A DNA stretch of 64,000 nt, taken from positions 1,715 to 65,714 of the forward strand of contig JAUWPM010000001.1 of NCBI GenBank assembly GCA_030611585.1. Direction: 5' to 3'. A program made the translations under genes and the position numbers. The notes beneath the pieces are model-generated. The model did not search any database. It had not been told where the DNA came from and was given only the letters and a program-made list of their open reading frames with translations. Within the stretch, counting starts at the first letter, position 1, and the number at the start of each line of letters is the position of its first letter. This document shows, piece after piece, positions 17,181-54,432 of the stretch. Source of the DNA: Methanosarcinales archaeon (GTDB taxonomy: Archaea; Halobacteriota; Syntropharchaeia; Alkanophagales; Methanospirareceae).

Positions 17181-17194
17181 TGTTTTTTCCAGCT

Positions 17195-19825: not shown

Positions 19826-20302
19826 TTAGCGGAAAATCCTATGCTCTTTTGCTTCTCGCTTCTTCGCTTCACAGGGATGCACCCCCGTCTCACAGAATAT
19901 CTCAAAGTGTTCCAGCCACTGCGGGTAATCCGGCGCGGACTGGACGAACTGCACTAAGCTTTTCAACTGCCCTATCGTCTCCGGCTCCACTTCGTGCTCG
20001 ATGATGCACGCGTCTTTATTCGCTATCTTCTTCGGCACATTTATTATCTCCAAAAACGTTCTTATCGTCTCGTGGCGGTCTTTAACGACACGTGCTACAT
20101 CTCGCCCTTTTGGGGTTAATTTCACTCCCTCGTATTTCCGGTATTCGACAAGACCCATGTCGTTCAGTCTCTTCAACATCTCCACAACGCTGGGAGGTTT
20201 TATACCCAAAGCCAATGCAATATCCTTCGTCCTCGTGTGCCCCCTCCGTTCCGCGATGTTCAGAATCGCCTCGAGATAGTCCTCCACTTTTCTGCTTAGC
20301 AT
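19826..20302 (-). CDS. DtxR/MntR-family metal-dependent transcriptional repressor
   Basis: N-terminal wHTH (VEDYLEAILNIAERRGHTRTKDIALALGIKPPSVVEMLKRL) and dimerisation/metal-binding domain (HETIRTFL...EHEVEPE). Confidence 0.8.
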   Translation of the reverse strand: MLSRKVEDYLEAILNIAERRGHTRTKDIALALGIKPPSVVEMLKRLNDMGLVEYRKYEGVKLTPKGRDVARVVKDRHETIRTFLEIINVPKKIANKDACIIEHEVEPETIGQLKSLVQFVQSAPDYPQWLEHFEIFCETGVHPCEAKKREAKEHRIFR

Positions 20303-29067: not shown

Positions 29068-29252
29068 GTAGTTTAATAAAGAGGTGAGTATGTCCTCCAG
29101 AAAGGATGATGCCATGACTAATTGACATGGGTGGGAGCGAGTAGGGGAGGGTTCGCCGATTTTTTTATTTTTTGCTACTTTCCACACATTCACCCGAATT
29201 GCAGTTCGTCTTTACAGCAAGTTATTTGAAGACTCTGCGTAGTTTTTAAAAT

Positions 29253-31714: not shown

Positions 31715-32098
31715 TCAAGCCACAATCAACTTGACGTAATCCATTTTCCCGGTGATCTGGAACAATCTAACCAACTCCTTTATCCGCGCAGCGTCACCCT
31801 CCAAGATGAACACTTCAAGGCATTTATCTTCCCGCAAGTGGTTATGAATCTGAGTGCTTATGATGTCCTCGAATTCGTGTTTTATCTCTGTCACCACATC
31901 CTCCGCTTTCTGCGCATGAATGAGCAAGAGCACGAAATTCAACCTGCCCTCCAGCTTCTCCTTCTCTTTGCTATCCGCAATGAGCATTCTCGCCCCCGCT
32001 CTTATCACTTCTGACCGCCCGGAGAACCCCAGCTCTTTCTGTAGCTTATCTATCCCCGCTAATAGCCCATCATTTAATGATATGCTGATGATTGTCAT
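31715..32098 (-). CDS. nikR: NikR-family nickel-responsive regulator (RHH plus ACT-like metal-binding domain)
   Basis: N-terminal ribbon-helix-helix ([37 protein letters not shown]). The C-terminal domain has the H...H...C metal-ligand spacing (IHAQ...HNH...C). Confidence 0.65.
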
Positions 32099-34689: not shown

Positions 34690-34999
34690 TGTATTATTAT
34701 TGTAGTACTAAGGTAGTGGCGAGACGTTTAAAAGATACGCGATTGGTCTTTCTCGTATCCGAAGAAAGAGACATTTTCCGTCAACGCGTTTCTTCTTAAA
34801 GAAAAGGGTTATGAATGAGCATAGCAGCGATCCAGAGTTCCCAAGTGCTCGCGCAACTCAGTACAGTAAGGAACGCTGACGGGCTTATCTGCCGGGTTCG
34901 GAATGAGACCGGGAGTTTCCCCGCCGCTATGGCCGCTATGCCCATTTAGAGTATGATATTTTTTCTACTTAAAAAGGTTGTTGCGAAACCAGCAGGAAA

Positions 35000-35055
35000 A
35001 AAAAAACGAAAACCTTTTTATATCGAACAGTTTTATATTGCATATCGAAGGTGAA
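35000..35055 (+). promoter_or_regulatory. archaeal BRE/TATA promoter with conserved downstream operator (first of six or more copies)
   Basis: aaaaaacgaaaaCCTTTTTATATCGAACAGttttatattgCATATCGAAGGtg lies directly upstream of ATG 35061. The same architecture occurs at 38421, 39745, 40441, 48225 and 54285. Confidence 0.6.
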
Positions 35056-35060: not shown

Positions 35061-35903
35061 ATGGAAAGAAAGAAAATTTTAGGTATAATAGCAATAGTGG
35101 CAATCGCAACGGCAGTGATGTTCGCGGGTTGTATCAACGAAGAAACGCCTGTGTCCACTCCTACGCAGACGGCAACGGTAAGTCCGACCACACCAACGGG
35201 AACTTCTTCACTCATGGTCTATAGCGGCGCGGGCATGAGAAAGCCGATGGATGAGATCGGAACTTTGTTTGAGCAGAAGTACGGCGTTCCCGTGAACTAC
35301 AACTATGCCGGTTCCAATACGCTCTTGAGCCAGATAGAACTGACGAAAAAAGGCGACGTCTACATGCCGGGAGCAACGATGTACATCGAGACAGCGAAAG
35401 AGAAGGGGTTTGTTGATTACGAGCAGAATGTCGCATACCATATACCGGTGATCGCAGTCCCGGAGGGTAATCCGGCGAATATAACCTGTTTGGATGACCT
35501 TACAAAGCCTGGGGTAAAAGTCGTTCTGGGAGATCCGAAAGCAGCTGCATGTGGCAAGATCGCAAAGAAAATACTGGAGAAGAACGGGATTACGGATGCC
35601 GTGGATGCGAATACCATTGCGCGTGCTGCGACAGTAAATGAGCTGGTGGTCTATACGTGCATGGGCACCGCGGACGCATCAATAATATGGCAAGCATCTC
35701 TGATTGGGACTGGGAACGAGACGGATATTATAGAGATACCCAGGGAGCAGAATCTCATAAAAGTGATTCCAATAGGCACGCTAACGTTCTCTGAGAACAA
35801 AGATTATGCAAAGAAATTCGTTGATTTCGTTACCTCTGATGAAGGAAAAGCAATTTACGAGAAACATGGATTTACGGCATATCCAAACGAAAAGTATGAA
35901 TAG
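35061..35903 (+). CDS. modA: molybdate/tungstate ABC transporter substrate-binding protein (ModA-type) with lipobox-like N-terminus
   Basis: Signal peptide ending in FAGC, a Thr/Pro linker, then a ModA-like PBP fold (VYSGAGMRKPMDEIGTLFEQKYG...AACGKIAKKI). Confidence 0.75.
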   Translation: MERKKILGIIAIVAIATAVMFAGCINEETPVSTPTQTATVSPTTPTGTSSLMVYSGAGMRKPMDEIGTLFEQKYGVPVNYNYAGSNTLLSQIELTKKGDVYMPGATMYIETAKEKGFVDYEQNVAYHIPVIAVPEGNPANITCLDDLTKPGVKVVLGDPKAAACGKIAKKILEKNGITDAVDANTIARAATVNELVVYTCMGTADASIIWQASLIGTGNETDIIEIPREQNLIKVIPIGTLTFSENKDYAKKFVDFVTSDEGKAIYEKHGFTAYPNEKYE

Positions 35904-35951
35904 TCTGGTTCACAAGAACAGTACAGTAAGAGAGTAAGGGTAAGGGCGGCG

Positions 35952-36461
35952 ATGGGGGAAGACATAGAGGGAAAGGAGGCTCGGAAGACGTACCAACCAA
36001 TCGGAATAATACACTCAGGATTCCGGGATAAAAAAGACACGCCCATTCAGGGCATTTTCGCAAAGGGCGCAAAGGGTAAGGTGGAAGTGTTCCCTGAATA
36101 CGCTAACGGGCTCAAAGACATCGAGGGTTTCTCGCACCTTATCCTTATTTACCATTTCCATCGCTCTGACGGCTATTCGTTGATTTCAAAGCCGCTTTTA
36201 GAGGACGAACCGCATGGAATCTTCTCAATAAGGCATTTCAAAAGGCCCAACCCCATCGGATTGTCCGTAGTCAAGCTGGAGAGCGTAAAGGGGAATGTTT
36301 TGGAGATCAGCGACGTTGACGTCCTGGACGGTACGCCGCTGCTCGATATAAAACCCTTCGTGCCGCGGTTTGACAACAGACCGGATGCAAAAAGTGGGTG
36401 GCTCAGTAACCCCCATTTAGATCTGGTTAAGGGTGAATCGGGCAAACATAGAAGCGAATAG
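35952..36461 (+). CDS. TsaA/TrmO-family (YaeB-like) SAM-dependent methyltransferase
   Basis: IGIIHSGFRDKKDTPIQG...GLKDIEGFSHLILIYHFH...NPIGLSVVKL...DGTPLLDIKPF is the UPF0066 signature. Confidence 0.75.
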   Translation: MGEDIEGKEARKTYQPIGIIHSGFRDKKDTPIQGIFAKGAKGKVEVFPEYANGLKDIEGFSHLILIYHFHRSDGYSLISKPLLEDEPHGIFSIRHFKRPNPIGLSVVKLESVKGNVLEISDVDVLDGTPLLDIKPFVPRFDNRPDAKSGWLSNPHLDLVKGESGKHRSE

Positions 36462-36479
36462 GAACGAAGGGTCAGCACA

Positions 36480-37280
36480 ATGTTAAAGGAATTGAAAGCG
36501 TCAAAGATCAAGATTGTTACGATACTATCCTGTTTACTGCTCGCCTTTTTTATTTTAGTCCTGATTATTTGCGTGGTTACGCACACCACGCTGCCGGCAC
36601 TGATGACCAGCCTTGCTTCCAAGGAGATACAATTCGCAATAAAATTGAGTTTGACAACCGCTGCCATCTCCACCATTCTATGTATTGCCATCTCAATACC
36701 TGCGGCATACGCGCTTGCTCGATACGAGTTCTTTGGTAAGAGTTTGATTAATACCCTGATGGACATTCCGCTGGCTTTACCGCCGTTGGTCGCTGGCGTG
36801 GGTTTGTTAATACTATTTGGCACGACCTCGTTTGGTAAAGCGCTTGCCGAAACGGGGCTTGTTTTCGTGTTCACACCATTGGGGATAATAATTGCGCAGT
36901 TCTTTGTTAACGTGCCGTTCATGTTCCGGATACTGCGAGGCACTTTTCAGGGCATAAATCCGAGATACGAGCACGTAGCAGAGACGCTTGGGTGCACAGA
37001 GGCACAGGCATTTCGGCGTGTTACACTGCCGATGTCGAAGAATGGTCTCTTAGCGGGCTCTGTTATCACGTGGTCAAAAGGGATAGGCGAGTTTGGAGCC
37101 GCACTGATGGTCGCAGGAGCGACGAGAATGAAGACCGAGACGTTGCCCATTTCATTATACTTGAACATGTCCTGCGGTGAACTCAATTTAGCCATCGCAT
37201 CAGCAACCATTCTGATTGTCATATCACTTGTATCTCTGTTCGTTTTTGAAAGGTACGGGGGTTTTGCCCGTGTATTCTGA
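36480..37280 (+). CDS. modB: molybdate/tungstate ABC transporter permease
   Basis: ABC-2 permease with the EAA-like loop (RVTLPMSKNGLLAGSVITWSKGIGEFGAALMVAG). Six TM helices. Confidence 0.85.
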   Translation: MLKELKASKIKIVTILSCLLLAFFILVLIICVVTHTTLPALMTSLASKEIQFAIKLSLTTAAISTILCIAISIPAAYALARYEFFGKSLINTLMDIPLALPPLVAGVGLLILFGTTSFGKALAETGLVFVFTPLGIIIAQFFVNVPFMFRILRGTFQGINPRYEHVAETLGCTEAQAFRRVTLPMSKNGLLAGSVITWSKGIGEFGAALMVAGATRMKTETLPISLYLNMSCGELNLAIASATILIVISLVSLFVFERYGGFARVF

Positions 37281-37302
37281 GGACAAAGGAGCGGCAAAGA
37301 AA

Positions 37303-38376
37303 ATGATACGGTTAGAGAACATATCAAAGGATCTGGGCGAGTTCTTCTTACGAGACGTAACGCTCGAGATAAACGAAGGCGAGTATTTCGTCATCCTGGG
37401 TCCTACAGGTGCAGGAAAGACAATCCTGCTGGAGACGATAGCGGGTATTTACCACCCGGATAGTGGCAGGATTCTTCTTAACGATAGCGACGTTACTGAG
37501 GTCCCACCACGGGAGCGGAACATTGGCATGGTCTATCAGGATTATATCCTGTTCCCGTTTCTGACGGTAGAGGAAAACATCGGCTTTGGACTGAAGTCGC
37601 GAAAGATAGGAAAAAGCGAGATCAAACGTAAGGTGGATGAACTTGAGAACTTATTGGATATTTCTCATCTGTCGCATCGTTACCCCGTTACGCTCAGTGG
37701 CGGCGAGCAGCAGAAGGTCGCCATTGCACGCGCAATCGCCATTGAACCCCCGATATTGCTTCTGGACGAGCCGTTATCCGCTTTGGACTCCAGAACGCGG
37801 GATTATCTGAGAGGAGAGCTGAAGCGAGTGAAAGACGAATTCGGGATTACCATGGTTCACGTAACGCACGACCAGACGGAGGCGATGGTGCTCGCTGATA
37901 GAATAGCGGTGATGATGCAAGGGCGAATACTGCAGGTAGGTACACCTTACGAGATTTTTAATAAGCCACTAAACAATGATTTAGCCGATTTCGTCGGTGT
38001 TGAGAACATACTGAGCGGTGTCGTGCGCACTAATGAGGATGGCGTTGCGGAGATAGAAGTTGATACTGGAGGGACTATATTCGCCGTTTCTGAGTACCAT
38101 GCAGGGGATGCCGTAAAAGTATTCTTAAGACCCGAGGAGATAATCTTGTCCGGACATGAGGGGGATAGCACAGCCAGAAACGTTGTGAAAGGAAGAATAA
38201 ACGAGCTGCATGACGTGGGCCCTTTAACACGTGTGCAAATGGATACCGGGCGTAGCGAGCTTAGCGAGCTTGTAGTGCTTATTACAAAGCGATCACGTGA
38301 AAGCCTTGGATTGCAGATAGGGGATGAAGTCTACGCAACTTTCAAAGCGACTTCGGCGCACGTAGTGCGAGGATGA
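37303..38376 (+). CDS. modC: molybdate/tungstate ABC transporter ATP-binding protein with C-terminal Mop/TOBE domain
   Basis: Walker A GPTGAGKT, signature LSGGEQQKVAIARA and Walker B LLLDEPLSALD. The C-terminal TOBE domain is ARNVVKGRINE...LGLQIGDEVYATFKATSAHV. Confidence 0.85.
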   Translation: MIRLENISKDLGEFFLRDVTLEINEGEYFVILGPTGAGKTILLETIAGIYHPDSGRILLNDSDVTEVPPRERNIGMVYQDYILFPFLTVEENIGFGLKSRKIGKSEIKRKVDELENLLDISHLSHRYPVTLSGGEQQKVAIARAIAIEPPILLLDEPLSALDSRTRDYLRGELKRVKDEFGITMVHVTHDQTEAMVLADRIAVMMQGRILQVGTPYEIFNKPLNNDLADFVGVENILSGVVRTNEDGVAEIEVDTGGTIFAVSEYHAGDAVKVFLRPEEIILSGHEGDSTARNVVKGRINELHDVGPLTRVQMDTGRSELSELVVLITKRSRESLGLQIGDEVYATFKATSAHVVRG

Positions 38377-38420
38377 GAAGCGGCATGCTTCTATAAAGGT
38401 TCGTTGAGAAACCAACAGTA

Positions 38421-38472
38421 AAAAACCGCAAACCTTTTTATATCGAATGGTCATATATCGCATATCGAAGGT
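38421..38472 (+). promoter_or_regulatory. promoter plus operator copy
   Basis: aaaaaccgcaaaCCTTTTTATATCGAATGGtcatatATCGCATATCGAAGGtggataaaATG. Confidence 0.6.
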
Positions 38473-38478: not shown

Positions 38479-39666
<1,188 letters not shown>

Positions 39667-39744: not shown

Positions 39745-39905
39745 AGAAAAAACCGAAAAGCTTTTATAGCGAGTGATATAAATGTGCATATCGCGTAAGC
39801 CATTATTTCGCCTCTGGTTCTGGTTTTGGTCATTACATACGGATATGGAACAGAAGCGGTAGCGTGGGGCGGATGTCGCCCCGCCCCTCGCATTGTTTTT
39901 GGCCG
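39745..39905 (+). promoter_or_regulatory. promoter plus operator followed by a conserved approximately 100-nt region ending in a GC hairpin and T-tract (possible sRNA or leader)
   Basis: accgaaaaGCTTTTATAgcgagtgatataaatgtgCATATCGcg ... gtggggcggatgtcgccccgcccctcgcattgttttt. A paralogous copy lies at 54285-54432 with a compensatory hairpin (ggggcgctgcaccgcccc). Confidence 0.45.
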
Positions 39906-39965
39906 CCCGCTATAACCAACAACAGTTGCAAAACACCGTGGGGCATGCATAGATAGGTGAGCGAA

Positions 39966-40127
39966 ATGGACGAAATAACAAGACTGATAAAGGATCTGAG
40001 AAGACTACTTCAGAATATCCCCGAAGAAGATCGCTATAAAATTCTGGAAGGGGTGGATGTTAATGAGATAAAAGAAGAGTTGGGCTCGTGGTTTATCGCG
40101 GACTATCCATTTTACAAGGGTTCATAG
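39966..40127 (+). CDS. possible small protein (53 aa)
   Basis: ATG preceded by aggtga; MDEITRLIKDLRRLLQNIPEEDRYKILEGVDVNEIKEELGSWFIADYPFYKGS. Not in the supplied ORF track (under 60 aa). Confidence 0.25.
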   Translation: MDEITRLIKDLRRLLQNIPEEDRYKILEGVDVNEIKEELGSWFIADYPFYKGS

Positions 40128-40175: not shown

Positions 40176-40385
40176 TCAGTCTTTTGAGACCATTACTTCC
40201 GACGCTTTTATCACCGCTTCTACTTTATCGCCCGCTTTGAGACCAAGATCTTCCGCCGCCTCTTTTGTGATCATCGAGGTGATGATTGCGGGCTTGGTGA
40301 TCTCGATTTTTACCGTAGAAGCAACCTCGCCTTTCTCTATTGCCTTTACAACACCTTCAATCCTATTCCTTGCGCTTAATGGCAT
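40176..40385 (-). CDS. mop: Mop/TOBE-domain molybdate- or tungstate-binding protein (molbindin)
   Basis: 69 aa: SARNRIEGVVKAIEKGEVASTVKIEI...DLGLKAGDKVEAVIKASEVMV. This matches the C-terminal TOBE domains of the two ModC/WtpC proteins. Confidence 0.8.
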   Translation of the reverse strand: MPLSARNRIEGVVKAIEKGEVASTVKIEITKPAIITSMITKEAAEDLGLKAGDKVEAVIKASEVMVSKD

Positions 40386-40440
40386 TTTTTTCTATCACCA
40401 ATTGATGATTCGTTTCGTATGTTAAAATGCTTTCGGTAGA

Positions 40441-40495
40441 AAAAAAAAACCGAAAAGCTTTTTATGTCGAATGGTGCAATATTGCATATCAATAG
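40441..40495 (+). promoter_or_regulatory. promoter plus operator copy
   Basis: aaaaaccgaaaaGCTTTTTATGTCGAATGGtgcaatattgCATATCAATAGtg. Confidence 0.6.
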
Positions 40496-40536: not shown

Positions 40537-41778
40537 ATGAAAATTAGAGATTGTATGCTGTGGATGATGGTATGCATTAGCATAGGATTGTTGTTTTTAG
40601 CGCCTCCAGCACTGGTAGCAACGACAGGAGGGGCAGTCGCGATACATGAGAACGATGGCGTTACAGTTTTGAACGCGATGACGGCGGATGGCTTCTTCGA
40701 TGGCTCCGTCACACTTACGGACGGGAATTTCACTTTAACCGCATACAATTCCGGGGTAGATTACGAAGTCAGACAACTTACGCCCCTGGGCGCACTCGAC
40801 GCGGCGGCGACTGCAGGTGCATTTGACTACAACTTCACTGATAAGAAGTTTGATTCGCAGGGTATCCTGATGGTTGACGACATCGGAGAGTACCACTACA
40901 ACAAGATCAACAGTTCGGTAAAGTGGGCGTGGAGCTGCTCAGTAAATGGCAATGTCCTGGACGACTGGAGCAATCCCGGAACCGAAGGCTTGAACGTCTA
41001 CGAGCTGCATGACAATGACGTGGTGTACTACTACTACGGGAACGTCAAGCTGCCTGGTTACGGGCCTGAAGACGCCATAGCGGCAGTCAATATTACCGTG
41101 AATCCCACGCCGGGTGACTGGAATCTCAAGCTCGTTGGCGTAGTCAATGAAACCGTCACAAAGGCGGAGTTTGAGAACGGAGTTGCCTGTGGGCATTATG
41201 CTAACTGGACAAACTCCGAGACCGGTGAGTTCTGGGAAGGTATGCCGCTCTGGTACCTCGTAGGGCGGGTTGACGATGAGATACAGCACGGCTCAGGTGC
41301 ATTCAACGACTCGCTCGCTGCGGAGGGGTACTCGGTAAAAGTAATAGCCGGCGACGGATGGAGCACCAGCCTTGCCAGCGCGGACATCGCACGGAACGAT
41401 GGTTACATCGTTGCAAATAAGCTCAACGGCTCAGCACTTCCGAATCAGACGCCGTCCGGGAAGCCCTGCTGGCCTCTTCACCTCAAAGGCGCTAACGTGA
41501 CTGGCGGACAGCAGGTCGGGAACATCGTTGAGATTGACCTTGTCGGTCTACCCGAACCGCCTGAGGGCTGGGAACTCAAGCTGCTCGGCGACGTTGGCGA
41601 TACGATCACGCAAGCCGAGTTCGAGGATGCTGTTTCATGCCATGGCGTGACGTACACCGACGGTAGCGATATTTGGAGTGGAGTTCCGCTCTGGTATCTC
41701 TGCGGTGCGGTGGACAACCTCGAGACTGGCAGTCACTGGACATTTAACGATACCTCGCAGCCGCAGACTACACGGTAA
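40537..41778 (+). CDS. secreted multi-SUOX-fold surface protein, N-terminal part (signal peptide, beta-rich domain, two SUOX-like modules); continues into 41850-42341 after a frameshift
   Basis: Sec-type signal peptide. Modules match the YedY/sulfite-oxidase Moco-domain pattern: WNLKLVGVVNETVTKAEFE..VACGHY......WEGMPLWYLVGRV.......GYSVKVIAGDGWSTSL........DGYIVANKLNGSALP....WPLHLKGANV. Frame 1 ends ...TFNDTSQPQTTR*, and frame 0 from 41748 reads LAAADYTVKVIAADGYN..., which is the expected continuation. Confidence 0.7.
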   Translation: MKIRDCMLWMMVCISIGLLFLAPPALVATTGGAVAIHENDGVTVLNAMTADGFFDGSVTLTDGNFTLTAYNSGVDYEVRQLTPLGALDAAATAGAFDYNFTDKKFDSQGILMVDDIGEYHYNKINSSVKWAWSCSVNGNVLDDWSNPGTEGLNVYELHDNDVVYYYYGNVKLPGYGPEDAIAAVNITVNPTPGDWNLKLVGVVNETVTKAEFENGVACGHYANWTNSETGEFWEGMPLWYLVGRVDDEIQHGSGAFNDSLAAEGYSVKVIAGDGWSTSLASADIARNDGYIVANKLNGSALPNQTPSGKPCWPLHLKGANVTGGQQVGNIVEIDLVGLPEPPEGWELKLLGDVGDTITQAEFEDAVSCHGVTYTDGSDIWSGVPLWYLCGAVDNLETGSHWTFNDTSQPQTTR

Positions 41779-41849
41779 AAGTAATCGCAGCCGATGGCTA
41801 TAACAGATCATTTGTCAGCAGCGAGATTGCTCGTAACAACGGTTATATC

Positions 41850-42341
41850 GTGGCAAACACGCTGAACGGAGAGCCGCTTGACTATCTATGCCCGCTAAAG
41901 CTTGTGGGTAGCGCCATTACATCTGGTAAGGATAAGGTTGGTAACATCTCTGAGATTGATCTCGTTGAGCTTATCACTCCGCCACCTGATTCCGGCAGCT
42001 ATAACCTGAATTTAACCGGCAAGATAACTGACGTGTTATCTCAAACCGAATTCGAGGCTGGAGTTGCCTGCCATGACGTGACCTGGACAGATGACGACGG
42101 GAATGTGTGGCAAGGTGTTCCGCTCTGGCTCTTCTGCGGCTGGGTGGACGACCGAATCCCACACGGACCCGACGGATTCAACGACAATCAAGCTGCTGCG
42201 GGATACAAGATCATCGTAAAAGCCGGCGACGGCTATGCCAAGGAATTCGCAAGCGCAGACGTCGCTCGGACTAACGACTACATTATCGCCAACACGGTGA
42301 ACGGCACGCCGCTCTCAAAGGATGGTTCGCACCCGCCCTAG
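41850..42341 (+). CDS. SUOX-fold module fragment of the same surface protein; ends at in-frame TAG 42339-42341
   Basis: ...VACHDVTWTDDDGNVWQGVPLWLFCGWVDD...GYKIIVKAGDGYAKEFASADVARTNDYIIANTVNGTPL. The TAG replaces the Trp of the conserved (S/C)WPL(H/R)L motif seen in the sister modules. Confidence 0.65.
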   Translation: MANTLNGEPLDYLCPLKLVGSAITSGKDKVGNISEIDLVELITPPPDSGSYNLNLTGKITDVLSQTEFEAGVACHDVTWTDDDGNVWQGVPLWLFCGWVDDRIPHGPDGFNDNQAAAGYKIIVKAGDGYAKEFASADVARTNDYIIANTVNGTPLSKDGSHPP

Positions 42342-42377
42342 CCACTTAGAATTGTTGGACCGGGCGCGCAGGGTGGC

Positions 42378-43823
42378 ATGAGTGTTGGCAACATCGTGGA
42401 GATCGAATTGACCGAGTTTGGTACGTCAACAGAGGTGCCCTCCGTACACGTCGTCAAGTACGATACGGATGGCACTACCATTCTGAACGAGACCAACGTC
42501 ACTTACCTGTGGATGAAGGCAAACCTCCTGGTCATCGGAGACGGCACAACGCACTACAAGTTCGAGGCTTGTGATTTCACCGAAGGCGATCACTGGGATC
42601 AGGCTGAGACCTACCCGGGTGGCTTCAAGATAGATCGGGTCGTGAAAGGGACCTCGGTGAAAGATCTCTGTGAACTCGTCGGAGGCATGGGCGCCGAGAC
42701 CGAGATCAAGCTGGTTGCCAGTGATGGGTACGAGACCTCGCTGGGCTACGCGAACATCTACACCGATGAACTTACGAGTACGCAGCGGGAACGTCAGGGT
42801 GATGCTTTCCTCGCCTGGTGGGCGGATGATCAAGGCTACGTGCCGGACTATTCCAACGGAATGCGGCTATTCTTTAGCGCAAGTGACGATGACTACGTCT
42901 TCGGCCTGTGGGACATGCACGAGTGCATGGACGAAGATTACTGGCACTATTACTGGAATGGGGGCGTACAGTATCCCTCGTGTGCGGGTCTTTCAGCTAA
43001 GTATATTGATACAATCAAGATATATTCTGCGCCCGAAGCAGACTGGAATCTCACGTTAGAAGGCGCTATCAACGATACCATCAGCAAGTCATACTTTGAG
43101 CAGGCTCTCGCCTGTACCATGGGCGGACACGCAGCGGAATATACAGACAGCAAAGGCAGGATGTGGGAAGGAATGCCGTTATGGCTGCTCTGTGGCTGGG
43201 TGGATGACGAGAACAAGCATTCCGCGGGCGCATACAATGACGCACTCGCCGCGGCAGGGTACAACATTACGATCAGCGCGAGCGATGGCTATAACGTGAC
43301 AATTGACAGTAGAGATACGATCCGAAACAGCAACTACATCGTTGCGAACACGCTGAACGGCACGCACATACCTTCAGACAGTTCAAGCTGGCCACTCAGA
43401 CTCGTCGGAGCTAACGTATCCGGCAGCATGACCGTCAAAGGGATAGCAAAGATTGAACTGGATACTATTCCTACTCCTGCACCAACGCCAACACCAAGAC
43501 CACACGGCGGTGGAGGAGGAGCATCTAAAGATTCCGACGGCGATGGGTACTCAGATATACAAGAACTGCTTGCGGGAACCAACCCGAACGACCAGAATGA
43601 CTATCCAAACAAACCTGTAGCAACGCCAACACCGACTCTAACGTCAGCACCAACCGCAACACCAACACCAGTACCAACGGTACCACCAACAGTAGCACCA
43701 ACAGCAACACCAGTACCAGCAACACCCACACCAACACCGGAAGAACCGGGCTTCGAAGTAGGATTTGCCATTGCCAGCTTATTAGCGATCGCATATCTGG
43801 TGCTAAGAAAGAGGAGGAAGTAG
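42378..43823 (+). CDS. C-terminal part of the same surface protein: SUOX-like modules, Pro/Thr linker, DxDGDGxxD calcium-binding-like motif, PGF-CTERM
   Basis: No signal peptide of its own; same frame as 41850-42341. Contains VHVVKYDTDGTTILNETNVTYLWMKANL...VKDLCELVGGMGAETEIKLVASDGY... and a second module ...LACTMGGHAAEYTDSKGRMWEGMPLWLLCGWVDD.... Ends [25 protein letters not shown]. Confidence 0.7.
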   Translation: MSVGNIVEIELTEFGTSTEVPSVHVVKYDTDGTTILNETNVTYLWMKANLLVIGDGTTHYKFEACDFTEGDHWDQAETYPGGFKIDRVVKGTSVKDLCELVGGMGAETEIKLVASDGYETSLGYANIYTDELTSTQRERQGDAFLAWWADDQGYVPDYSNGMRLFFSASDDDYVFGLWDMHECMDEDYWHYYWNGGVQYPSCAGLSAKYIDTIKIYSAPEADWNLTLEGAINDTISKSYFEQALACTMGGHAAEYTDSKGRMWEGMPLWLLCGWVDDENKHSAGAYNDALAAAGYNITISASDGYNVTIDSRDTIRNSNYIVANTLNGTHIPSDSSSWPLRLVGANVSGSMTVKGIAKIELDTIPTPAPTPTPRPHGGGGGASKDSDGDGYSDIQELLAGTNPNDQNDYPNKPVATPTPTLTSAPTATPTPVPTVPPTVAPTATPVPATPTPTPEEPGFEVGFAIASLLAIAYLVLRKRRK

Positions 43824-43905
43824 AAGCAGAAAGGAACGAACCATAAAACAAGAAACTCGTTTTTATTTCACCTGAAAAATCCGCATAAGCACGGAGGAAG
43901 GCACT

Positions 43906-44898
43906 ATGAATCGTGTGAAGAAGGATAAGCATCAAGAATGGAGAGGTATGCTGCTCATCGGTACCCTTCTCGTGCTTCTCCTCCTCGCTGTACCACCAAC
44001 AACGGCAGCGACAACAGAGGTACATCTAATAAAGTACGCCGTGGATGAATCAATACTGAACGAGACCACGGTGAACTACACGTGGATGGAAGCGAATCTG
44101 CCGGTTTATGGCGATGGCGTAACGCATTACTACCACCAGGGACCTACCTTTAATGAGTGCGATCCGTGGGATCCTGCTGAGGATACAAACGTGGAAAATA
44201 GAGATTACGGTGCTGTGCGAGGGACGGATGTTAAGGATCTGAGCGATCTGGTGGGAGGGATGTCCCTTGGCGATGAGATAAAAATTAAGGCATCTGACGG
44301 CTTCTACAAGAGGTTCAACTACACAAATATCTATGCGCCACAACCAAGGCAGGGGCCGTTGGTTCTGACATGGTGGCATGCGGGAGATGGATACGTGCCC
44401 GACTATTATACTGGAATGCGTCTCATCTTCTTTGCCGACACCAGCACGAATCCATGGGGTTACCATGTATTTGGCAACTGGGACATGCACGAATGTCTCG
44501 CTCCAAAGTACTGGCATAACTATAGTGGAATATGGCCTTCTTCGAGTGGACTGTCTGTGTACCACGTTGATGAACTGGCGATATACAGCACGCTTGATCA
44601 CGCGGAGCTACGTTCAATTAAGGTTTCACCTACCGAAGTAACGCTGAACAGCAGAGATACGCAGCAGTTCACGGCAACCGCATACGACCAATATGGCAAT
44701 GAAATGCCAAACATTGACTTTACATGGGATAGCAGCAATGAAACCGTTGGAACTGTTGACGATACAGGATTGTTCGAGGCAAAAGCAGCAGGAACTACAA
44801 CGGTTACGGCGGCAAACGGAACCGTGAATGGAACGGCAATGGTAACGGTAATTCCCATCCCGATTACACTGGACCCTACATCACGGGCACTACAATAA
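43906..44898 (+). CDS. secreted SUOX-fold plus Big_2 domain protein, frameshifted into the downstream PAP-like ORF
   Basis: Signal peptide, then VHLIKYAVDESILNETTVNYTWMEANLPVYGDGVTHYYHQGP...VKDLSDLVGGMSLGDEIKIKASDGF...GMRLIFFAD (SUOX-like variant). A Big_2 Ig-like domain follows (VTLNSRDTQQFTATAYDQYGNEMP...GTTTVTAANGTVNGTAMVTV). Frame 0 is open from 44760 and reads ...PYITGTTINSTTINWKTENATTGTVKYATEG..., which is an FN3-like purple acid phosphatase N-domain. Confidence 0.65.
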   Translation: MNRVKKDKHQEWRGMLLIGTLLVLLLLAVPPTTAATTEVHLIKYAVDESILNETTVNYTWMEANLPVYGDGVTHYYHQGPTFNECDPWDPAEDTNVENRDYGAVRGTDVKDLSDLVGGMSLGDEIKIKASDGFYKRFNYTNIYAPQPRQGPLVLTWWHAGDGYVPDYYTGMRLIFFADTSTNPWGYHVFGNWDMHECLAPKYWHNYSGIWPSSSGLSVYHVDELAIYSTLDHAELRSIKVSPTEVTLNSRDTQQFTATAYDQYGNEMPNIDFTWDSSNETVGTVDDTGLFEAKAAGTTTVTAANGTVNGTAMVTVIPIPITLDPTSRALQ

Positions 44899-44945
44899 AC
44901 TCGACGACAATCAACTGGAAGACGGAAAATGCAACTACGGGGACG

Positions 44946-46343
44946 GTGAAGTATGCAACAGAAGGGTATTACACAGAACACGGCGACTACGACCATGCCG
45001 TTGAAGATGAGGAAGAGACGCAACTTCACCACCTCATTATTACGAATCTGATGCCGAATACGATATATCATTATCAACTAATAATCGGGAATGAATCCAC
45101 TGGCGACCATTTCTTCAGAACATTTCCGGTTACCAGTTCGTTCACCTTTATTGTGTACGGGGATACGAGAGAGCAAACACCGTTATTCACACAATTGGAG
45201 CGACACAAGCTCGTTGCAGACCGTATCGCAGAAGAGGAAAACATTTCATTCGTAATACACACCGGAGATTTTGTCTGCAATGGAAACGACCTTGACGAAT
45301 GGAACAGATTCTTCGATGCCGGCAGAGCGATGCTCGTAAATACAACTATTTATCCTGTGCTCGGAAATCATGAGGATAATCACACGAACTACTACGATAT
45401 GTTTGGCGTTCCAGAGTGGTATTCGTTCGACTGTGGAAACGCGCACTTTACCGTGCTGGATAGCAACTGGGTACCGCTACAGCAGACGGCATGGTTGCGG
45501 AACGACCTTAATACGAGTGCCGCATGGAAATTCGTGTCGTTCCACCATCCGATCTACAGCTCAGATGAACGACATTGGGGCGGCTGGAAGAATGACGTGT
45601 GGGAGAATATTTTCATAAACAACAGTGTAAATGCGGTGTTCAACGGTCACGTGCACGTTTACGAGCGCTACGAGGAGAATGGCATTCAGTACGTGGTTGT
45701 AGGTTGCGGTGGCGCGCCGTTGTATTCTCTTGCATCTGAGAAGATAGCCGGTTACCAGAACAGCTTTGAACACGCACTCGGATACGCTAAGATTACGATA
45801 GACTCAGATAAAGGAGAAGCGACAACGGAAGTAATAAAAGTCGCGGACGTCTCAGAAGATAACAAGAATGTTACATATATCTACCCACAGAACACGATAT
45901 TTGAGACCGTCGTCCTCTATTTAACCCAGCCTCCGCAAATATTCGATACCGGAGTCCCGGATAATCCCTATCCCTCTATTTCCGGCACACATAAAGGAAT
46001 GATCAAAACGGGTCGGGACATTAACGTGAGCACGATGTATACTTACCCATGCCCGGGAACAGGAGGGCATACAGAATACGTAAAGATCGAGAATGATTCC
46101 TGGAACATAACGGCGAATTGGACGGGGTACCAGGGCGACTGGCAGAACATTACCTTTGACGACTCGTTCACGCTAAAGGCCGGTGAAACGTACAGTTATA
46201 CAATAATAACCGGCTCGTATCCGCAGATAATACACAAGCATAAATTCAATGCAACAGGAGGAACAATAAACTGCACTGAATTCATAGACGCCAACGGAAA
46301 ACACTATCAGAATTGGGTACCCGCTATCAGACTATCCCGTTAG
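44946..46343 (+). CDS. purple-acid-phosphatase-like metallophosphoesterase domain (continuation of 43906-44898)
   Basis: GDTREQ, GDFVCNG, GNHE, VSFHHPIYS and GHVHVYER metallophosphatase motifs. GTG start assigned by the ORF finder; the upstream frame is open. Confidence 0.7.
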   Translation: MKYATEGYYTEHGDYDHAVEDEEETQLHHLIITNLMPNTIYHYQLIIGNESTGDHFFRTFPVTSSFTFIVYGDTREQTPLFTQLERHKLVADRIAEEENISFVIHTGDFVCNGNDLDEWNRFFDAGRAMLVNTTIYPVLGNHEDNHTNYYDMFGVPEWYSFDCGNAHFTVLDSNWVPLQQTAWLRNDLNTSAAWKFVSFHHPIYSSDERHWGGWKNDVWENIFINNSVNAVFNGHVHVYERYEENGIQYVVVGCGGAPLYSLASEKIAGYQNSFEHALGYAKITIDSDKGEATTEVIKVADVSEDNKNVTYIYPQNTIFETVVLYLTQPPQIFDTGVPDNPYPSISGTHKGMIKTGRDINVSTMYTYPCPGTGGHTEYVKIENDSWNITANWTGYQGDWQNITFDDSFTLKAGETYSYTIITGSYPQIIHKHKFNATGGTINCTEFIDANGKHYQNWVPAIRLSR

Positions 46344-48135: not shown

Positions 48136-48170
48136 AGATTCCACGAGAGGGACACAGAAGAATAAAAAAA

Positions 48171-48198
48171 ATCTGTGAGAATCTGTGAGAATCTGTGG
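48171..48198. repeat. short tandem repeat, 3 x aatctgtgag-like (10 bp)
   Basis: atctgtgaga atctgtgaga atctgtgg, immediately upstream of promoter copy e. Confidence 0.6.
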
Positions 48199-48224
48199 TT
48201 ACAAAATTTTTATCAGCATGAATA

Positions 48225-48272
48225 AACCGAAAACCTTTTATGTCGAACGGTCTATTTTTACATATCAATGCG
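48225..48272 (+). promoter_or_regulatory. promoter plus operator copy heading the SUOX-wtpABC operon
   Basis: aaaccgaaaaCCTTTTATGTCGAACGGtctatttttaCATATCAATGcgg. Confidence 0.6.
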
Positions 48273-49845
48273 GCGTGGTACGGAAAAGATGAAACAAATG
48301 AAACAATATGTGCCACTAGCATTATTGTGTGCCGGTGTTGCGCTGCTGCTCTTAACGCTTCCAGCGCAGGCAGCAGGTACGACAGAAGTGCACGTGGTGA
48401 AATACGCCTCTGATGGCACGACCGTTCTGAACGAGACGACGGTAAACTACATGAGGATGAAGGCGAATCTACCAGTCTACGGGGATGGGACTACGCATTA
48501 CTACCATCAGGGACCGATCTTCGAAGATGCATGGAATGAAGTACACCCCAACGAGACGTGGGATCTTGAAGAGGACAAGTGGAACCCGGAAGAGGACGTC
48601 AATGTACTTGGGGAAGACCTGGGCGCCGTGAAAGGAACGGACGTTAAGGATCTGTGTGATTTGGTCGGAGGAATGTCAGAAGGCGATGAGGTAAAGATTA
48701 AAGCCGTTGACAACTTCTACAAGAGTTTCCCGTACTCGAACGTCTACGAACCCGATCCGCGACAGGGTCCGATGGTCGTGACCTGGTACACCGAAGACGC
48801 CACGGAGAGCGGGCCGATTAGCGGGTACGTGCCGGAGGACTACTATAACGGCATGCGACTCGTATTCCTTGCTGATGCTTCCACCAACCCGTGGGGCAAG
48901 CACGTATTTGGCATCAGCGACATGCGCGCATGCCTCCCTGAGGATTACTGGCATTACTATCAGTACCCGGATTACCCTTCTACGGGCGGATACACTATAA
49001 AGTACATAGATAGAATCCTGATCTACAGCAGTATCGAGCCACCGGAATTGACGTCAATCGCGGTTTCTCCATCCAGCGTGGAGCTGGAAGAAGATGCGAC
49101 AAAACAGTTCAATGCAACCGCATACGACCAGAATGGCGATGAAATGCCAGATATAATCTTTACGTGGACGAGCAGTGATGAAACAGTTGGAACAATTGAC
49201 GAAAATGGATTATTTACCGCATTAGATGCCGGGGAGACCACAATAACAGCAGCGAACGAAACAGTAGAGGGAACGGCAACTGTAACGGTACACGAGGAAG
49301 ACAGCGATGACAATGAAGATGGGGAAGATAGTGGTGCTGGTGACGGAACTTCTCAGTCCAGCCCAGTCCTAACCGTAATTAACGTCTCACCGCCATCAGT
49401 AACGCTGAACGCCAGTAACACGCAGCAGTTCAATGCAACCGCTTACGACCAAACGCAGAACCCGATAGTGGGTGTCGTTTTCAATTGGACGATCGGCAAT
49501 GAAACCGTTGGAACGATCAATAACGCTGGATTCTTCACCGCTATTGCAGCAGGAACGACAACGATAAGAGCTGCGAATGGAACCGTGAACGGAACGGCAA
49601 ATGTAACGGTGCTTGCTCCGACAACAACACCTTCACCAACTGAAACGCTAACGGTAAACGCAACGCCTTTTCCATCTCCTACCGCTCATTCAATTCCGAC
49701 ACACTCGCCATCTGCAACAGTAACAGCAACACCTACGCCCACAGTAACGTCTACGCCAACGCCATCAGTACCAGGATTTGAAGCTTTATTCGCACTCGTA
49801 GGATTGTTGACGGTAGCTTACGTGATTAATAGGAGAAAAAAATAA
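48268..49845 (+). CDS. secreted surface protein: SUOX-fold module, two Big_2 domains, Thr/Pro linker and PGF-CTERM (intact)
   Basis: Signal peptide. VHVVKYASDGTTVLNETTVNYMRMKANLPVYGDGTTHYYHQGP...VKDLCDLVGGMSEGDEVKIKAVDNFY...GMRLVFLAD...KYIDRILIYS. Two Big_2 domains (VSPSSVELEEDATKQFNATAYDQNGDEMP...; VSPPSVTLNASNTQQFNATAYDQTQNPIV...). Ends PGFEALFALVGLLTVAYVINRRKK. Confidence 0.75.
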   Translation: MRRGTEKMKQMKQYVPLALLCAGVALLLLTLPAQAAGTTEVHVVKYASDGTTVLNETTVNYMRMKANLPVYGDGTTHYYHQGPIFEDAWNEVHPNETWDLEEDKWNPEEDVNVLGEDLGAVKGTDVKDLCDLVGGMSEGDEVKIKAVDNFYKSFPYSNVYEPDPRQGPMVVTWYTEDATESGPISGYVPEDYYNGMRLVFLADASTNPWGKHVFGISDMRACLPEDYWHYYQYPDYPSTGGYTIKYIDRILIYSSIEPPELTSIAVSPSSVELEEDATKQFNATAYDQNGDEMPDIIFTWTSSDETVGTIDENGLFTALDAGETTITAANETVEGTATVTVHEEDSDDNEDGEDSGAGDGTSQSSPVLTVINVSPPSVTLNASNTQQFNATAYDQTQNPIVGVVFNWTIGNETVGTINNAGFFTAIAAGTTTIRAANGTVNGTANVTVLAPTTTPSPTETLTVNATPFPSPTAHSIPTHSPSATVTATPTPTVTSTPTPSVPGFEALFALVGLLTVAYVINRRKK

Positions 49846-49846
49846 A

Positions 49847-50671
49847 ATGAACAGAAAAATAGTGTTTGGGATTTCACTGCTTCTGCTCTTAGTATTCGCA
49901 ACGGGTTTTGCTCATGCGGATCCAACGACGGAAGTGCACGTGATAAAGTATGCTGAGAATGAAACAATACTGAACGAAACAACCGTAACGTACCAGTGGC
50001 TGGAGGCGAATCTGCCGGTTCAGGGAGATGGAATAACGCATTATTACCATCAGGGACCGGTATTCGAGGGCGATAAATGGGATCCGAACGAGACGGCGAA
50101 CTATAAGGATAGAGGCGCCGTGAAAGGAACGGATATAAAGGATTTGTGCGATCTCGTGGGAGGGATGTCGCCGGGTGACGAAGTGATGATCCACGCGCCG
50201 GACGGCTACCACGTGGAGTTCGGCTACGCAAACGTCTACGAACCACAGCTTAGACAGGGACCGATGGTTCTGTGCTGGCATTGCAGCGAGGATATAAAAG
50301 AAATCGGCGAGCGACAGGGCGAGGGGTATCCACCAGACTATTACACGGGGATGCGGCTCGTCTTCTTCGCTGACGATTCTACCAATTTAGAGGGTAAACA
50401 CGTCTTCGGCAACTGGGACATGCACGAATGCTTACCCGAGCAGTGCTATCACTTCTATGAGCTCTATCCCTCCACAAACGGGTTTTCAGTGAAGTGGGTG
50501 GATGAGCTAAGGATTTACAGTGGTGGATACACCGGCGAGCACGGCGATCCAGCGAAAGCTATGCCTACGCCCACGCCTGCGTCACGCTCAATACCGGGAT
50601 TTGAGCTCGTATTCGCAATTGCGGGATTGCTGTTAGTTGCTTGTCATACTTTAGAGAGGAAAAGAAGATGA
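49847..50671 (+). CDS. secreted SUOX-fold protein with PGF-CTERM (intact)
   Basis: VHVIKYAENETILNETTVTYQWLEANLPVQGDGITHYYHQGP...IKDLCDLVGGMSPGDEVMIHAPDGY...GMRLVFFAD...KWVDELRIYSG; ends PGFELVFAIAGLLLVACHTLERKRR. The ATG lies 1 nt after the upstream TAA. Confidence 0.75.
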   Translation: MNRKIVFGISLLLLLVFATGFAHADPTTEVHVIKYAENETILNETTVTYQWLEANLPVQGDGITHYYHQGPVFEGDKWDPNETANYKDRGAVKGTDIKDLCDLVGGMSPGDEVMIHAPDGYHVEFGYANVYEPQLRQGPMVLCWHCSEDIKEIGERQGEGYPPDYYTGMRLVFFADDSTNLEGKHVFGNWDMHECLPEQCYHFYELYPSTNGFSVKWVDELRIYSGGYTGEHGDPAKAMPTPTPASRSIPGFELVFAIAGLLLVACHTLERKRR

Positions 50672-51267
50672 AAAAAAGCAAAGTCCTTGGACTTTTACTT
50701 GTTGTTGCGGTGGTCTGTATCGGTGGTATTGCAGCGGTTGCGTATCTGAATCCTTTTGGCACGCCGGAGGAGACCGTTGACTGGAACGTGACGTTGATAG
50801 GGTGCGGAGGCGAGGAGAAAGTGCTAACGTTCGACGAGATAAAAGCGATGCCTTCTTACAAGGGCTACGGCGGGTTCTTCACTACGGTTGGCATAGTAAA
50901 CGGGCCGTATAAATGCAAAGGCGTGCCCTTGAAGGACCTCTGCGCGCTCGTTGGCGGACTCGATGCGTCAAACACTGTCTGGGTATCGGCACCCGATGGG
51001 TATTTAATGACCTTCAGCTACGATCAGGTCAACGGTGATTTCCGCACTTACGATCCTGCAACGTTTAAGGAAGTGCCACACGAGGATTTAACGCTGATCT
51101 TGATGTACGAGCAGGATGACGCACCGCTGTCCGATTACGATGGCAGACCGCTCAGACTCGCGATCGTATCATCGTCGTCGTCAAGCGATGAGTTCATAAC
51201 GGAAGGGCATAGCTGGGTGAAATGGGTGAATAAAATAGAGGTTCGAACACCCGCTGCGAGTGCGTAG
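50668..51267 (+). CDS. small membrane-anchored SUOX-fold (Oxidored_molyb-like) protein
   Basis: N-terminal TM or signal anchor. WNVTLIGCGGEEKVLTFDEIKAMP...CKGVPLKDLCALVGGLDASNTVWVSAPDGY...LTLILMYEQDDAPLSDYDGRPLRLAIVSS...SWVKWVNKIEV aligns along its whole length with the YedY/SUOX Moco domain. Its ATG overlaps the upstream TGA (ATGA). Confidence 0.75.
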   Translation: MKKSKVLGLLLVVAVVCIGGIAAVAYLNPFGTPEETVDWNVTLIGCGGEEKVLTFDEIKAMPSYKGYGGFFTTVGIVNGPYKCKGVPLKDLCALVGGLDASNTVWVSAPDGYLMTFSYDQVNGDFRTYDPATFKEVPHEDLTLILMYEQDDAPLSDYDGRPLRLAIVSSSSSSDEFITEGHSWVKWVNKIEVRTPAASA

Positions 51268-51281
51268 CAGGATGGAGAAAG

Positions 51282-52331: not shown

Positions 52332-52347
52332 TGAGGAGGGAGGACGG

Positions 52348-53163
52348 ATGAACTCACTTTCAGGATGGCCCGGGACGGAGAAACTAAAGCGGGAGAAGGT
52401 CTACATCCTTTTCCTCTTCTTAGGGCTCGTTCTTGTTGCTTTTGTCTTTATTACAATTGGAAACTTGTATTACAAGCAAGCAGAAGACTTCTCCGGGTTA
52501 ATTGATGCTGCGACTGACCTCGTAGTTCTAAAAGCAATAGCGATAAGCATAACTATGGCACTGGCTTCCACCTTAATCGCGTTCTTATTTGGCGTCCCCT
52601 TAGCGTATTTCCTCGCGAGGAAGGAGTTCATGGGTAAGAGCGTAATAGAAGGTATTGTGGACATTCCCTTGATGATTCCACATGTGGTTGCTGGAATTGC
52701 ATTGTACGGGGTGTTCATGCGGTATGGATTGATCGGTGCGCCGCTTAGAAAATTGGGAATCGTAATTACGGATGCGTATCCCGGAATCGTGGTTGCGATG
52801 CTCTTCATGAGTCTCCCGTATTTGGTAGATACTGCGCGAGAAGGATTTAAAGAGGTTGATCCACGGTTAGAAAACGTTGCTCGCTCATTGGGCGCATCTC
52901 ATTGGAGAACGTTCCGAGAGATAACGTTCCCGCTTGCTTTCCCGTCCATATTGAGCGGCGCGATTCTGAGCTGGGGGCGAGCGATAAGCGAGTTCTCTGC
53001 GGTTCTAATCATCGCATATCACCCGATCTCCGCACCAATTTTAATCTACGAGAAGTTTACTTCGTTTGGACTTCGGGCATCACGACCAATCTCGGTTCTG
53101 CTGATCTCGATCTGTCTGGTTATTTTTATAATGCTGAGGTGGCTTCAGAGGAGAAGGGGATGA
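52348..53163 (+). CDS. wtpB: tungstate/molybdate ABC transporter permease
   Basis: Paralogue of 36480-37280 (LPLAFPSILSGAILSWGRAISEFSAVLIIA). Confidence 0.85.
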   Translation: MNSLSGWPGTEKLKREKVYILFLFLGLVLVAFVFITIGNLYYKQAEDFSGLIDAATDLVVLKAIAISITMALASTLIAFLFGVPLAYFLARKEFMGKSVIEGIVDIPLMIPHVVAGIALYGVFMRYGLIGAPLRKLGIVITDAYPGIVVAMLFMSLPYLVDTAREGFKEVDPRLENVARSLGASHWRTFREITFPLAFPSILSGAILSWGRAISEFSAVLIIAYHPISAPILIYEKFTSFGLRASRPISVLLISICLVIFIMLRWLQRRRG

Positions 53164-54249: not shown

Positions 54250-54284
54250 TGGACTGATATTAATATGGCGGTGCGAATTTCGAG

Positions 54285-54432
54285 AAAAACAGAAAAGCTT
54301 TTATGCCGAGCGGTGTATAACTACATATCGTGCACGCCATTATTTCGCCTCTGTTTTTACTCCAAAATACAGAAGCATTAGCACGAACGACCATGCGTGG
54401 GGCGCTGCACCGCCCCGCGCTGGTTCTTTGAG
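54285..54432 (+). promoter_or_regulatory. second copy of promoter/operator plus conserved hairpin region
   Basis: acagaaaaGCTTTTATGccgagcggtgtataactaCATATCGtgcacgccattatttcgcctctg...gcgtggggcgctgcaccgccccgcgctggttcttt is paralogous to 39745-39905. Confidence 0.45.

Follow-up and report, generated by a model that had tools for sequence, protein, structure and literature searches.

In Escherichia coli the ModE-molybdate complex represses modABC, and in Desulfovibrio the tungstate-responsive TunR joins a XerC/D-like DNA-binding domain to a ModE-like effector domain. In archaea, factors bound to the TATA box or to DNA downstream of it act as repressors; the operators of NrpR, MDR1, Phr and the TrmB family overlap the TATA box or the transcription start, where an occupied site would block the recruitment of TBP/TFB or of the polymerase. 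Anaerobic methanotrophic archaea of group 1 (ANME-1) oxidise methane by means of a tungsten- or molybdenum-dependent formylmethanofuran dehydrogenase and, to our knowledge, their gene regulation is almost unknown because they cannot be grown in pure culture. In Methanosarcina acetivorans, ModE acts as a repressor and its site has been defined experimentally as the palindrome RTTATGT-N8-RCATAAY (PMC12327845). In a Methanothermobacter system responsive to molybdenum and tungsten (Mo/W), the DNA-binding protein Tfx is reported to bind downstream of the promoter of a Mo-enzyme operon, fmdECB (Hochheimer 1999, summarised in PMC3087415). Here we describe a conserved 48-bp cassette present in six copies (a to f) in a 64,000-nucleotide stretch of a Methanosarcinales archaeon (assembly GCA_030611585.1, contig JAUWPM010000001.1, positions 1,715 to 65,714), hereafter the window. 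The six copies are probably one promoter-operator unit that defines a Mo/W homeostasis regulon in ANME-1-type archaea, and a candidate small RNA is encoded behind two of them.

The downstream part of the cassette, a 24-bp box, shares with the NrpR, MDR1, Phr and TrmB-family operators a position between TATA box and start, specificity for a regulon and an ordinary core promoter beneath it; most of those operators, however, are inverted repeats and their cognate factors are known, whereas the box is a direct repeat. Like the ModE operators of E. coli modA and of M. acetivorans (PMC12327845), it is an AT-rich, TATA-like and CG-containing element at promoters of Mo/W transporters and enzymes, repressor logic would be expected of it, and its GCATATC half resembles a ModE half-site. 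It differs in being a direct repeat of 22-bp spacing where the ModE site is a palindrome, in keeping a fixed register with the TATA box where in M. acetivorans the distance of the sites to the start codon ranges over 24-633 bp (PMC12327845), and in its taxa, ANME-1 and Methanocellales instead of Methanosarcina, with no modE gene in the window or the related loci. Tfx at fmdECB is the closest archaeal precedent for a Mo-responsive factor downstream of a promoter (PMC3087415); it is linked there to one operon only, fmd, which molybdate induces, whereas the box sits on a multi-operon uptake regulon, and no tfx-like gene was found adjoining any box. Our literature searches returned no prior description of the box, of an archaeal TunR, of wtpA regulators or of a Mo-responsive archaeal small RNA.

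A cassette of fixed geometry at Mo/W genes

The core pattern TTTTAT-N2-CGA-N14-CATATC has exactly six matches in the window, all on the forward strand and with identical spacing, starting at positions 35016, 38436, 39762, 40460, 48236 and 54299; no further match appears when up to 2 mismatches are allowed. The chance expectation is 0.21 matches, and none of 100 shuffled sequences reached six. All six copies proposed in a sequence-only reading of this DNA were recovered, and they fall into one shared alignment block. Counted from the first T of TTTTAT as origin, this block spans -16 to +31 and similarity among the copies stops sharply at both ends. It consists of an A-tract, a transcription factor B recognition element (BRE; CCGAAAA), a TATA box ((C/T)TTTTATA) and the 24-bp box CGArYGGTaTAwnwTTGCATATCG, which begins at the 3' edge of the TATA box and reaches the predicted start of transcription within CATATC. 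The start is placed at about +26 to +31, in CATATCG, because of the usual archaeal TATA-to-start spacing (TATA centre at about +3). From the beginning of the TATA box to CATATC there are 25-30 nt, and a Shine-Dalgarno sequence (GGTGA) and ATG follow 8-25 nt further on. The leaders of the protein genes measure about 20-50 nt, with a GGTGA Shine-Dalgarno in a and b, and all copies keep a fixed distance from the Shine-Dalgarno/ATG or from the 5' end of the RNA.

Several finer details of the earlier reading had to be adjusted. Its element TCGAAyGGT is exact in b, d and e, whereas a, c and f carry TCGAACAGT, GCGAGTGAT and CCGAGCGGT, the general form being CGARYRRT; the stretch between GGT and CATATC, put there at about 12 nt, measures 9 nt. 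The direct repeat that it placed about 20 bp apart is an exact pair of ATATCGAA in a and b, 22 bp from start to start, but is degenerate in c to f (ATGTCGAA...ATATCAAT and similar). Its assignment of a repressor-type site agrees with the position of the box, since an element reaching from the TATA box to the predicted start is typically placed for archaeal repressor sites. The upstream half (A-tract, BRE and TATA) is a near-perfect form of the organism's ordinary core promoter, and the box is the part that is specific to the regulon.

A weight matrix was trained on 43 sites of other genomes, with the window sites excluded, and about 128,000 window positions were scored with it. The six copies reached 52.6-63.3 bits, against -19.8 for the next best position and -20.7 for the best of 10 shuffles; the operator half alone separates them as well (22.5-31.0 vs at most 6.1). 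The promoters of FBPase (22354) and ftsZ (54633) and a promoter on the reverse strand (57540) have CGAAAA..TTTATA but not the box, and the +8..+31 part was found in no other promoter of the window, including those of 5S rRNA, RNase P RNA, ftsZ, FBPase and LysRS. The conserved element between TATA box and predicted start is absent from the unrelated promoters of the window and is placed at promoters of Mo/W transport and Mo/W-enzyme genes.

Cassette a (35000..35048, forward strand as are all six; 63.3 bits) has its A-tract and BRE at 35000-35014, the TATA box at 35015-35022 and the box at 35024-35047, with CATATC at 35041-35046 and a predicted start near 35042; it precedes modA, a trmO-like gene, modB and modC (35061-38376), the ModA product lying above the TIGR01256 cut-off. 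Cassette b (38420..38468; predicted start near 38462; 53.4 bits) precedes a wtpA gene with a PGF-CTERM anchor (38480-39666; WtpA above the NF003196 cut-off). Cassette d (40444..40492; predicted start near 40486; 58.9 bits) is followed by a five-gene operon (40537-46343) for secreted or anchored proteins, Oxidored_molyb-like/PGF-CTERM, Big_2 and metallophosphoesterase products among them. Cassette e (48220..48268; predicted start near 48262; 53.3 bits) precedes Big_2/PGF-CTERM, PGF-CTERM and Oxidored_molyb-like genes and then wtpA, a permease and an ATPase-TOBE gene (about 48289-54249). No protein gene lies directly behind cassette c (39746..39794; predicted start near 39788; 58.4 bits) or cassette f (54283..54331; predicted start near 54325; 52.6 bits); each precedes a copy of the small RNA described below.

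We scanned 185,579 species genomes for exact matches to TTTTATNNCGARYRRT-N9-CATATC, a pattern stricter than the core, and obtained 44 loci, 31 archaeal in content (34 sites) and 13 bacterial. The bacterial matches have neither BRE nor conserved flanks and fit chance, for which a rough estimate gives about 17 matches to a pattern of about 36 bits in 1.2e12 positions. The archaeal loci, cited here by L numbers, come from Methanophagales/ANME-1, from three metagenome-assembled genomes (MAGs) of Methanocellales and from MAGs labelled Methanosarcinales, Methanomicrobiales, Halobacteria and Methanobacteriota; bins labelled Desulfobacteria and Nitrosotalea (n=2) encode ANME-type WtpA or TupA-like proteins and look mis-binned. 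The window itself is 90% identical over 5.7 kb to MAG contig L035 and 85% identical to Methanophagales contig L020, which assigns it to an ANME-1-type organism. Positions that the search pattern leaves free are conserved in the archaeal sites too (A-tract/BRE, A at +6, aTAt at +16-19, TTG at +22-24 and G at +31), and conservation collapses beyond -16..+31. Loci from different orders, with encoded proteins 70-85% identical, retain the -16..+31 block amid flanks that have been randomised.

When up to 1 mismatch was allowed in the archaeal loci that were read, 51 sites outside the window were obtained. Binding-protein genes follow 30 of them (WtpA 17, ModA 8, TupA-like 5), the small RNA follows 8 and homologues of the surface-protein operons of d and e follow 4, while a FwdF-like polyferredoxin (below the family cut-off) and an AA-kinase-family protein of molybdenum-storage (MoSto-like) type each stand behind one. 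The remaining seven were left unclassified; they fall at contig ends or precede either a partial secreted protein or a truncated ferredoxin with a 243-aa protein and MobB behind it. None of the 51 sites adjoins a gene clearly unrelated to Mo/W. The proposal that the motif is the cis-element of a Mo/W regulon, as opposed to a generic consensus, thereby survived the check set for it, a search for the motif at unrelated loci: the box is confined to six sites in the window, and the scan of the species genomes gave no archaeal-type site by a clearly unrelated gene. A conserved cis-element of this kind offers a handle on regulation in ANME-1, and a matrix scan can list the Mo/W regulon in ANME-1 or Methanocellales genomes.

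Repeat symmetry, control and competing explanations

Comparison of a 49-site matrix with itself gave a single clear maximum, a direct repeat at offset 22 (score 5.83; next best 2.94), and weak inverted-repeat scores (at most 2.93). One half-site, TT..ATAnCGA, overlaps the TATA box, and the other, TTGCATATCG, lies over the predicted start, 22 bp or two helical turns away; the repeat can also be written ATAnCGA / ATATCG at the same spacing. In Methanocellales two to three tandem copies of the box unit, with spacings of 27 and 22 nt, stand behind a single TATA box and ahead of a TupA-like or WtpA gene, at L034 (6315-6390), L038 and L046. The box can therefore be separated from the core promoter as a module of its own and is more than promoter spacer; the tandem boxes are a natural variant useful for studying cooperative binding.

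Repression under replete conditions is the best reading of the cassette, on account of the position of the box, the optimal promoter and the high-affinity uptake systems that it heads, such systems being those that ModE represses in E. coli. When the oxyanion is plentiful, a Mo/W-sensing DNA-binding protein other than a canonical ModE would sit on the box and exclude TBP/TFB or RNA polymerase; when Mo/W becomes scarce the sensor would leave and the strong promoter fire, releasing one ModA-type and two WtpA-type ATP-binding cassette importers, the two surface-protein operons and the two small-RNA copies. The unpaired 5' segment of the RNA, complementary to a Shine-Dalgarno and AUG, might then repress the translation of some mRNA. 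ANME largely use a tungsten Fwd enzyme (PMC9012536); together with three binding-protein types that are WtpA or TupA-like, this makes tungstate at least as likely an effector as molybdate. The fuller proposal, in which a non-ModE regulator acting on a TATA-fused 22-bp direct repeat is coupled, in ANME-1 and Methanocellales, to a small RNA that silences a dispensable Mo/W function in trans under shortage, we advance tentatively, as a possibility with the balance tilted against it. The element itself indicates that Mo/W regulation in archaea is not uniformly based on the ModE palindrome, and transcripts driven by the box could be used in metatranscriptomes of methane seeps as markers of Mo/W limitation.

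Several observations weigh against a Mo/W regulon of this kind. No regulator was identified among the genes of the window and of the related loci. The BRE/TATA half is unusually well conserved too, so that selection for promoter strength or duplication of whole cassettes could account for part of the similarity; copies a and b share about 80 nt including a divergent promoter. Putative storage (MoSto-like) and cofactor (MobB) genes stand beside the uptake genes, which does not sit neatly with a pure starvation logic. The foreign loci could be read only up to 8-12 kb around each site, the sites were gathered with a window-derived pattern so that the logo is partly biased, and the pattern scan would miss weaker variants at unrelated genes.

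The earlier attribution of the element to a ModE-like sensor is not supported by a 22-bp direct repeat in place of the ModE palindrome, nor by any ModE-like helix-turn-helix gene in the window or the related loci. A divergent site, bound by a ModE homologue encoded elsewhere and with GCATATC as a half-site related to RCATAAY, is an unlikely alternative. GCATATC fits RCATAAY at 6 of 7 positions, the ModE regulon of M. acetivorans likewise includes Mo/W transporters and fmd (PMC12327845), and a divergent mop gene, encoding a TOBE-domain protein, adjoins cassette d and also the boxes in L039 and L045. A counterpart half-site is absent, however, since GAATGGT agrees with RTTATGT at only 3 of 7 positions, and the symmetry of the matrix is direct, not inverted. 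The palindrome is not enriched in the window either (with up to 3 mismatches, 27 matches vs 26.7 expected, and no match with fewer than 2), the 64 kb and some 50 related loci contained no ModE-type helix-turn-helix-TOBE gene, and a tblastn search of the same sequences with E. coli ModE gave similarity at the level of the TOBE domain only.

The other explanations concern the promoter itself. That the cassette is just a strong core promoter of highly expressed genes, with optimal BRE/TATA, a proximal element and an initiator and no dedicated regulator, would account for a BRE/TATA half that matches the consensus at ftsZ and FBPase and for CATATC at the initiator position; we consider it very improbable, as the +8..+31 part recurs at no other promoter of the 64 kb, no exact site in the relatives' genomes stands by a clearly unrelated gene, and Methanocellales multiply the box without a second TATA. 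Positive control, in which an activator or an alternative TFB/TBP paralogue would read the cassette as a promoter class of its own, gains something from the conservation of the cassette, core promoter included, as a single unit and from the established contact of TFB with DNA near the start site. Here too the odds seem poor: the BRE/TATA is an ordinary consensus and not a distinct one, the specific part is downstream of the TATA box, a position that no known archaeal activator occupies, and in Methanocellales the tandem boxes are found well beyond the start position. A repeat or mobile promoter cassette dispersed by duplication, whose similarity would reflect recent copying and not function, could explain the 80 nt shared by a and b, divergent promoter block included, and the resemblance of the f locus, with its small RNA and mop remnant, to a partial duplicate of the c locus. 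This we hold to be extremely improbable in view of the abrupt ends of similarity at -16 and +31, the retention of the block across orders among randomised flanks, and the fixed distance to the Shine-Dalgarno/ATG or RNA 5' end in every copy.

The operator of the proposed Mo/W regulon could be bound by a divergent ModE encoded elsewhere or by a DNA-binding partner of the adjacent Mop protein, and the 24-bp box can be used as bait for the regulator. Candidates considered and set aside include NikR (31715-32098, reverse strand), which keeps its HxH...C nickel ligands, and a DtxR-type protein (19826-20302) of the Fe/Mn type, both implausible as Mo/W sensors; a winged-helix open reading frame (ORF) in L045, found at that one locus only; and clusters of conserved "unknown" ORFs in related loci, which are shadow ORFs antisense to real genes. 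Three unannotated ORFs of the window (32213, 41850 and 29253) are membrane, secreted-type and uncharacterised, and none looks DNA-binding.

A candidate small RNA behind copies c and f

The putative small RNAs extend over 39788..39899 behind copy c (nhmmer E=4e-21; no ORF) and over 54325..54427 behind copy f (folding z = -4.6; profile E=1e-31), both on the forward strand. From the predicted start each runs into GCCAUUAUUUCGCCUCUG and continues through an internal hairpin and a GC-rich one (GCGUGGGGCG...CGCCCCGCGC) to a U-run, over a total of about 105-112 nt. Both have a predicted promoter of their own, no ORF, a 3' hairpin with a U-run and conservation elsewhere, as expected of small RNAs, and together they are a candidate new family. 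The 3' hairpin escaped a simple terminator search because its U-run starts 4 nt beyond the stem, and neither RNA has an Rfam match, to the molybdenum cofactor (Moco) riboswitch or any other family, at the gathering score or at E up to 1.

A metagenome search with a pattern taken from the RNA only, CCATTATTTYRCC-N35-60-GCGYGGGGCG, returned six true homologues and five unrelated bacterial matches. The box precedes five of the six homologues; the sixth, in L053, lies directly behind the stop codon of wtpA. A profile of the RNA gave 12 full-length matches in the window and related loci, with about ten distinct sequences, and degenerate relics without promoter lie behind wtpA in L020, L008 and L040. 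Compared with shuffled sequences, three members fold with z between -4.2 and -4.9, while copy c reaches -1.7 and L019 -1.3. Five f-type sequences fold consistently, but since only a single compensatory pair is seen among them the support for the predicted structure is modest and covariation is thin; in a global alignment of all 10 sequences the middles of the c and f types misalign and no consensus fold emerges.

The invariant 5' segment, GCCAUUAUUUCGCCUC in both copies, is the complement of GGAGG-YR-AAAUAAUGGC, that is, of a Shine-Dalgarno sequence and start codon, which suggests translational repression in trans. Duplex scans of the translation-start regions of the window and the related loci, each locus with its own RNA, gave no convincing target; the best matches were the genes' own antisense strands or lay in coding regions. 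Like the metal-sparing RNAs RyhB and PrrF, the candidate would be expressed from the same type of promoter as the uptake genes and expose an unpaired segment complementary to a ribosome-binding site; it differs from them in being archaeal, in its association with Mo/W and not Fe, in having no Rfam family and in its thin covariation. As far as our literature searches show, it would be the first candidate Mo/W-responsive small RNA in archaea and, if the reading is true, part of a Mo/W-sparing response analogous to that of RyhB in iron control.

Behind the c copy, a 56-aa ORF without family match (39957..40127, forward strand), which stands behind the RNA in L035, L041, L047 and L053 as well, may be read through from the promoter of cassette c and the RNA. 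The 3' end of the f copy is overlapped in antisense, convergently, by an N-terminally truncated mop (TOBE) remnant (54378-54557, reverse strand), and the f locus looks like a partial duplicate of the segment holding c, the small ORF and mop.

Divergent promoters and neighbouring features

Two conserved blocks upstream of copies a and b, which had been noted as possible further parts of the regulatory element, are real (34972-34995 and 38395-38418; 2 matches vs 0.00 expected) but do not belong to the common cassette or operator. A better interpretation is that they form the BRE-proximal part of divergent promoters of the opposite strand. The block of copy a (34968..34995, reverse strand) comprises the TATA box TTTTTAAG (34975 to 34968) and the BRE-proximal region of the promoter of a 5S rRNA gene (34819-34940, reverse strand; 96 bits); this TATA box precedes the 5' end of the 5S rRNA (34940) by about 30 nt, and the block forms a mirror-image inverted repeat with cassette a. 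The same back-to-back layout of 5S and box is found in L013, L035, L052, L055 and L057, and a divergent CGAAAAG..CTTAAAGAG promoter stands beside many of the foreign sites. The block of copy b (38395..38418, reverse strand) is a paralogous divergent promoter-like module with TTTATAG and without a 5S gene; it is conserved upstream of the wtpA orthologues in L008, L020, L035 and L040 and points into the 3' end of modC. This orphan module could drive an antisense RNA or be a relic of a 5S promoter. Between c and d lies mop (40176..40385, reverse strand; PF03459 1e-17, TIGR00638 above cut-off), encoding a 69-aa TOBE/Mop molybdate-binding protein, with a BRE/TATA of its own (40421-40437) that is divergent from, and a back-to-back mirror image of, cassette d.

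The wtpA gene behind cassette b shows a 1-nt deletion near 38574 (GCGC-AGAGG, compared with GCGCAAGAGG in L001 and L035), which separates the signal peptide from the body of the protein and is either a real frameshift or an assembly error. A gene of the TrmO/TsaA family (35952-36461, forward strand; TIGR00104 above cut-off) lies inside the modA-modB-modC operon and occupies the same place in nine related loci; we have no explanation for this association of a tRNA-methyltransferase-like protein with a molybdate transporter. The surface-anchored proteins of the box operons (40537-46343 and 48289-51267) carry PGF-CTERM, Big_2 and TSP3 domains, with a metallophosphoesterase as well, and their domains weakly resemble the molybdopterin-binding domain of sulfite-oxidase-type enzymes; the box-driven surface proteins could be extracellular machinery for Mo/W capture. 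Directly upstream of cassette e is a perfect tandem repeat of AATCTGTGAG (2.8 units, 48170-48197, forward strand), with a similar repeat before a d-type cassette in L035, which could be the site of a second factor or a duplication scar.

Other metal-homeostasis genes of the window (4269-8642, 10299-11027, 19826-20302 and 31715-32098) encode FmdE-like, FeoA/FeoB, ZIP, DtxR-type and NikR proteins, and no Mo/W box was found at any of them. The window is archaeal by its content of an archaeal RNase P RNA, the 5S rRNA and Ftr, and further contains a match to the DUF3800-X RNA of Rfam at 29082-29158 (forward strand; 55.6 bits, above the gathering score) in an archaeal context. Nine successive reverse-strand genes (11213-18217), eight of the S-adenosylmethionine-dependent methyltransferase family and one unannotated ORF, are followed by a DUF2325 gene; the run includes two O-methyltransferases and an ICMT/PEMT-like membrane enzyme and looks like a cluster for small-molecule or lipid modification.

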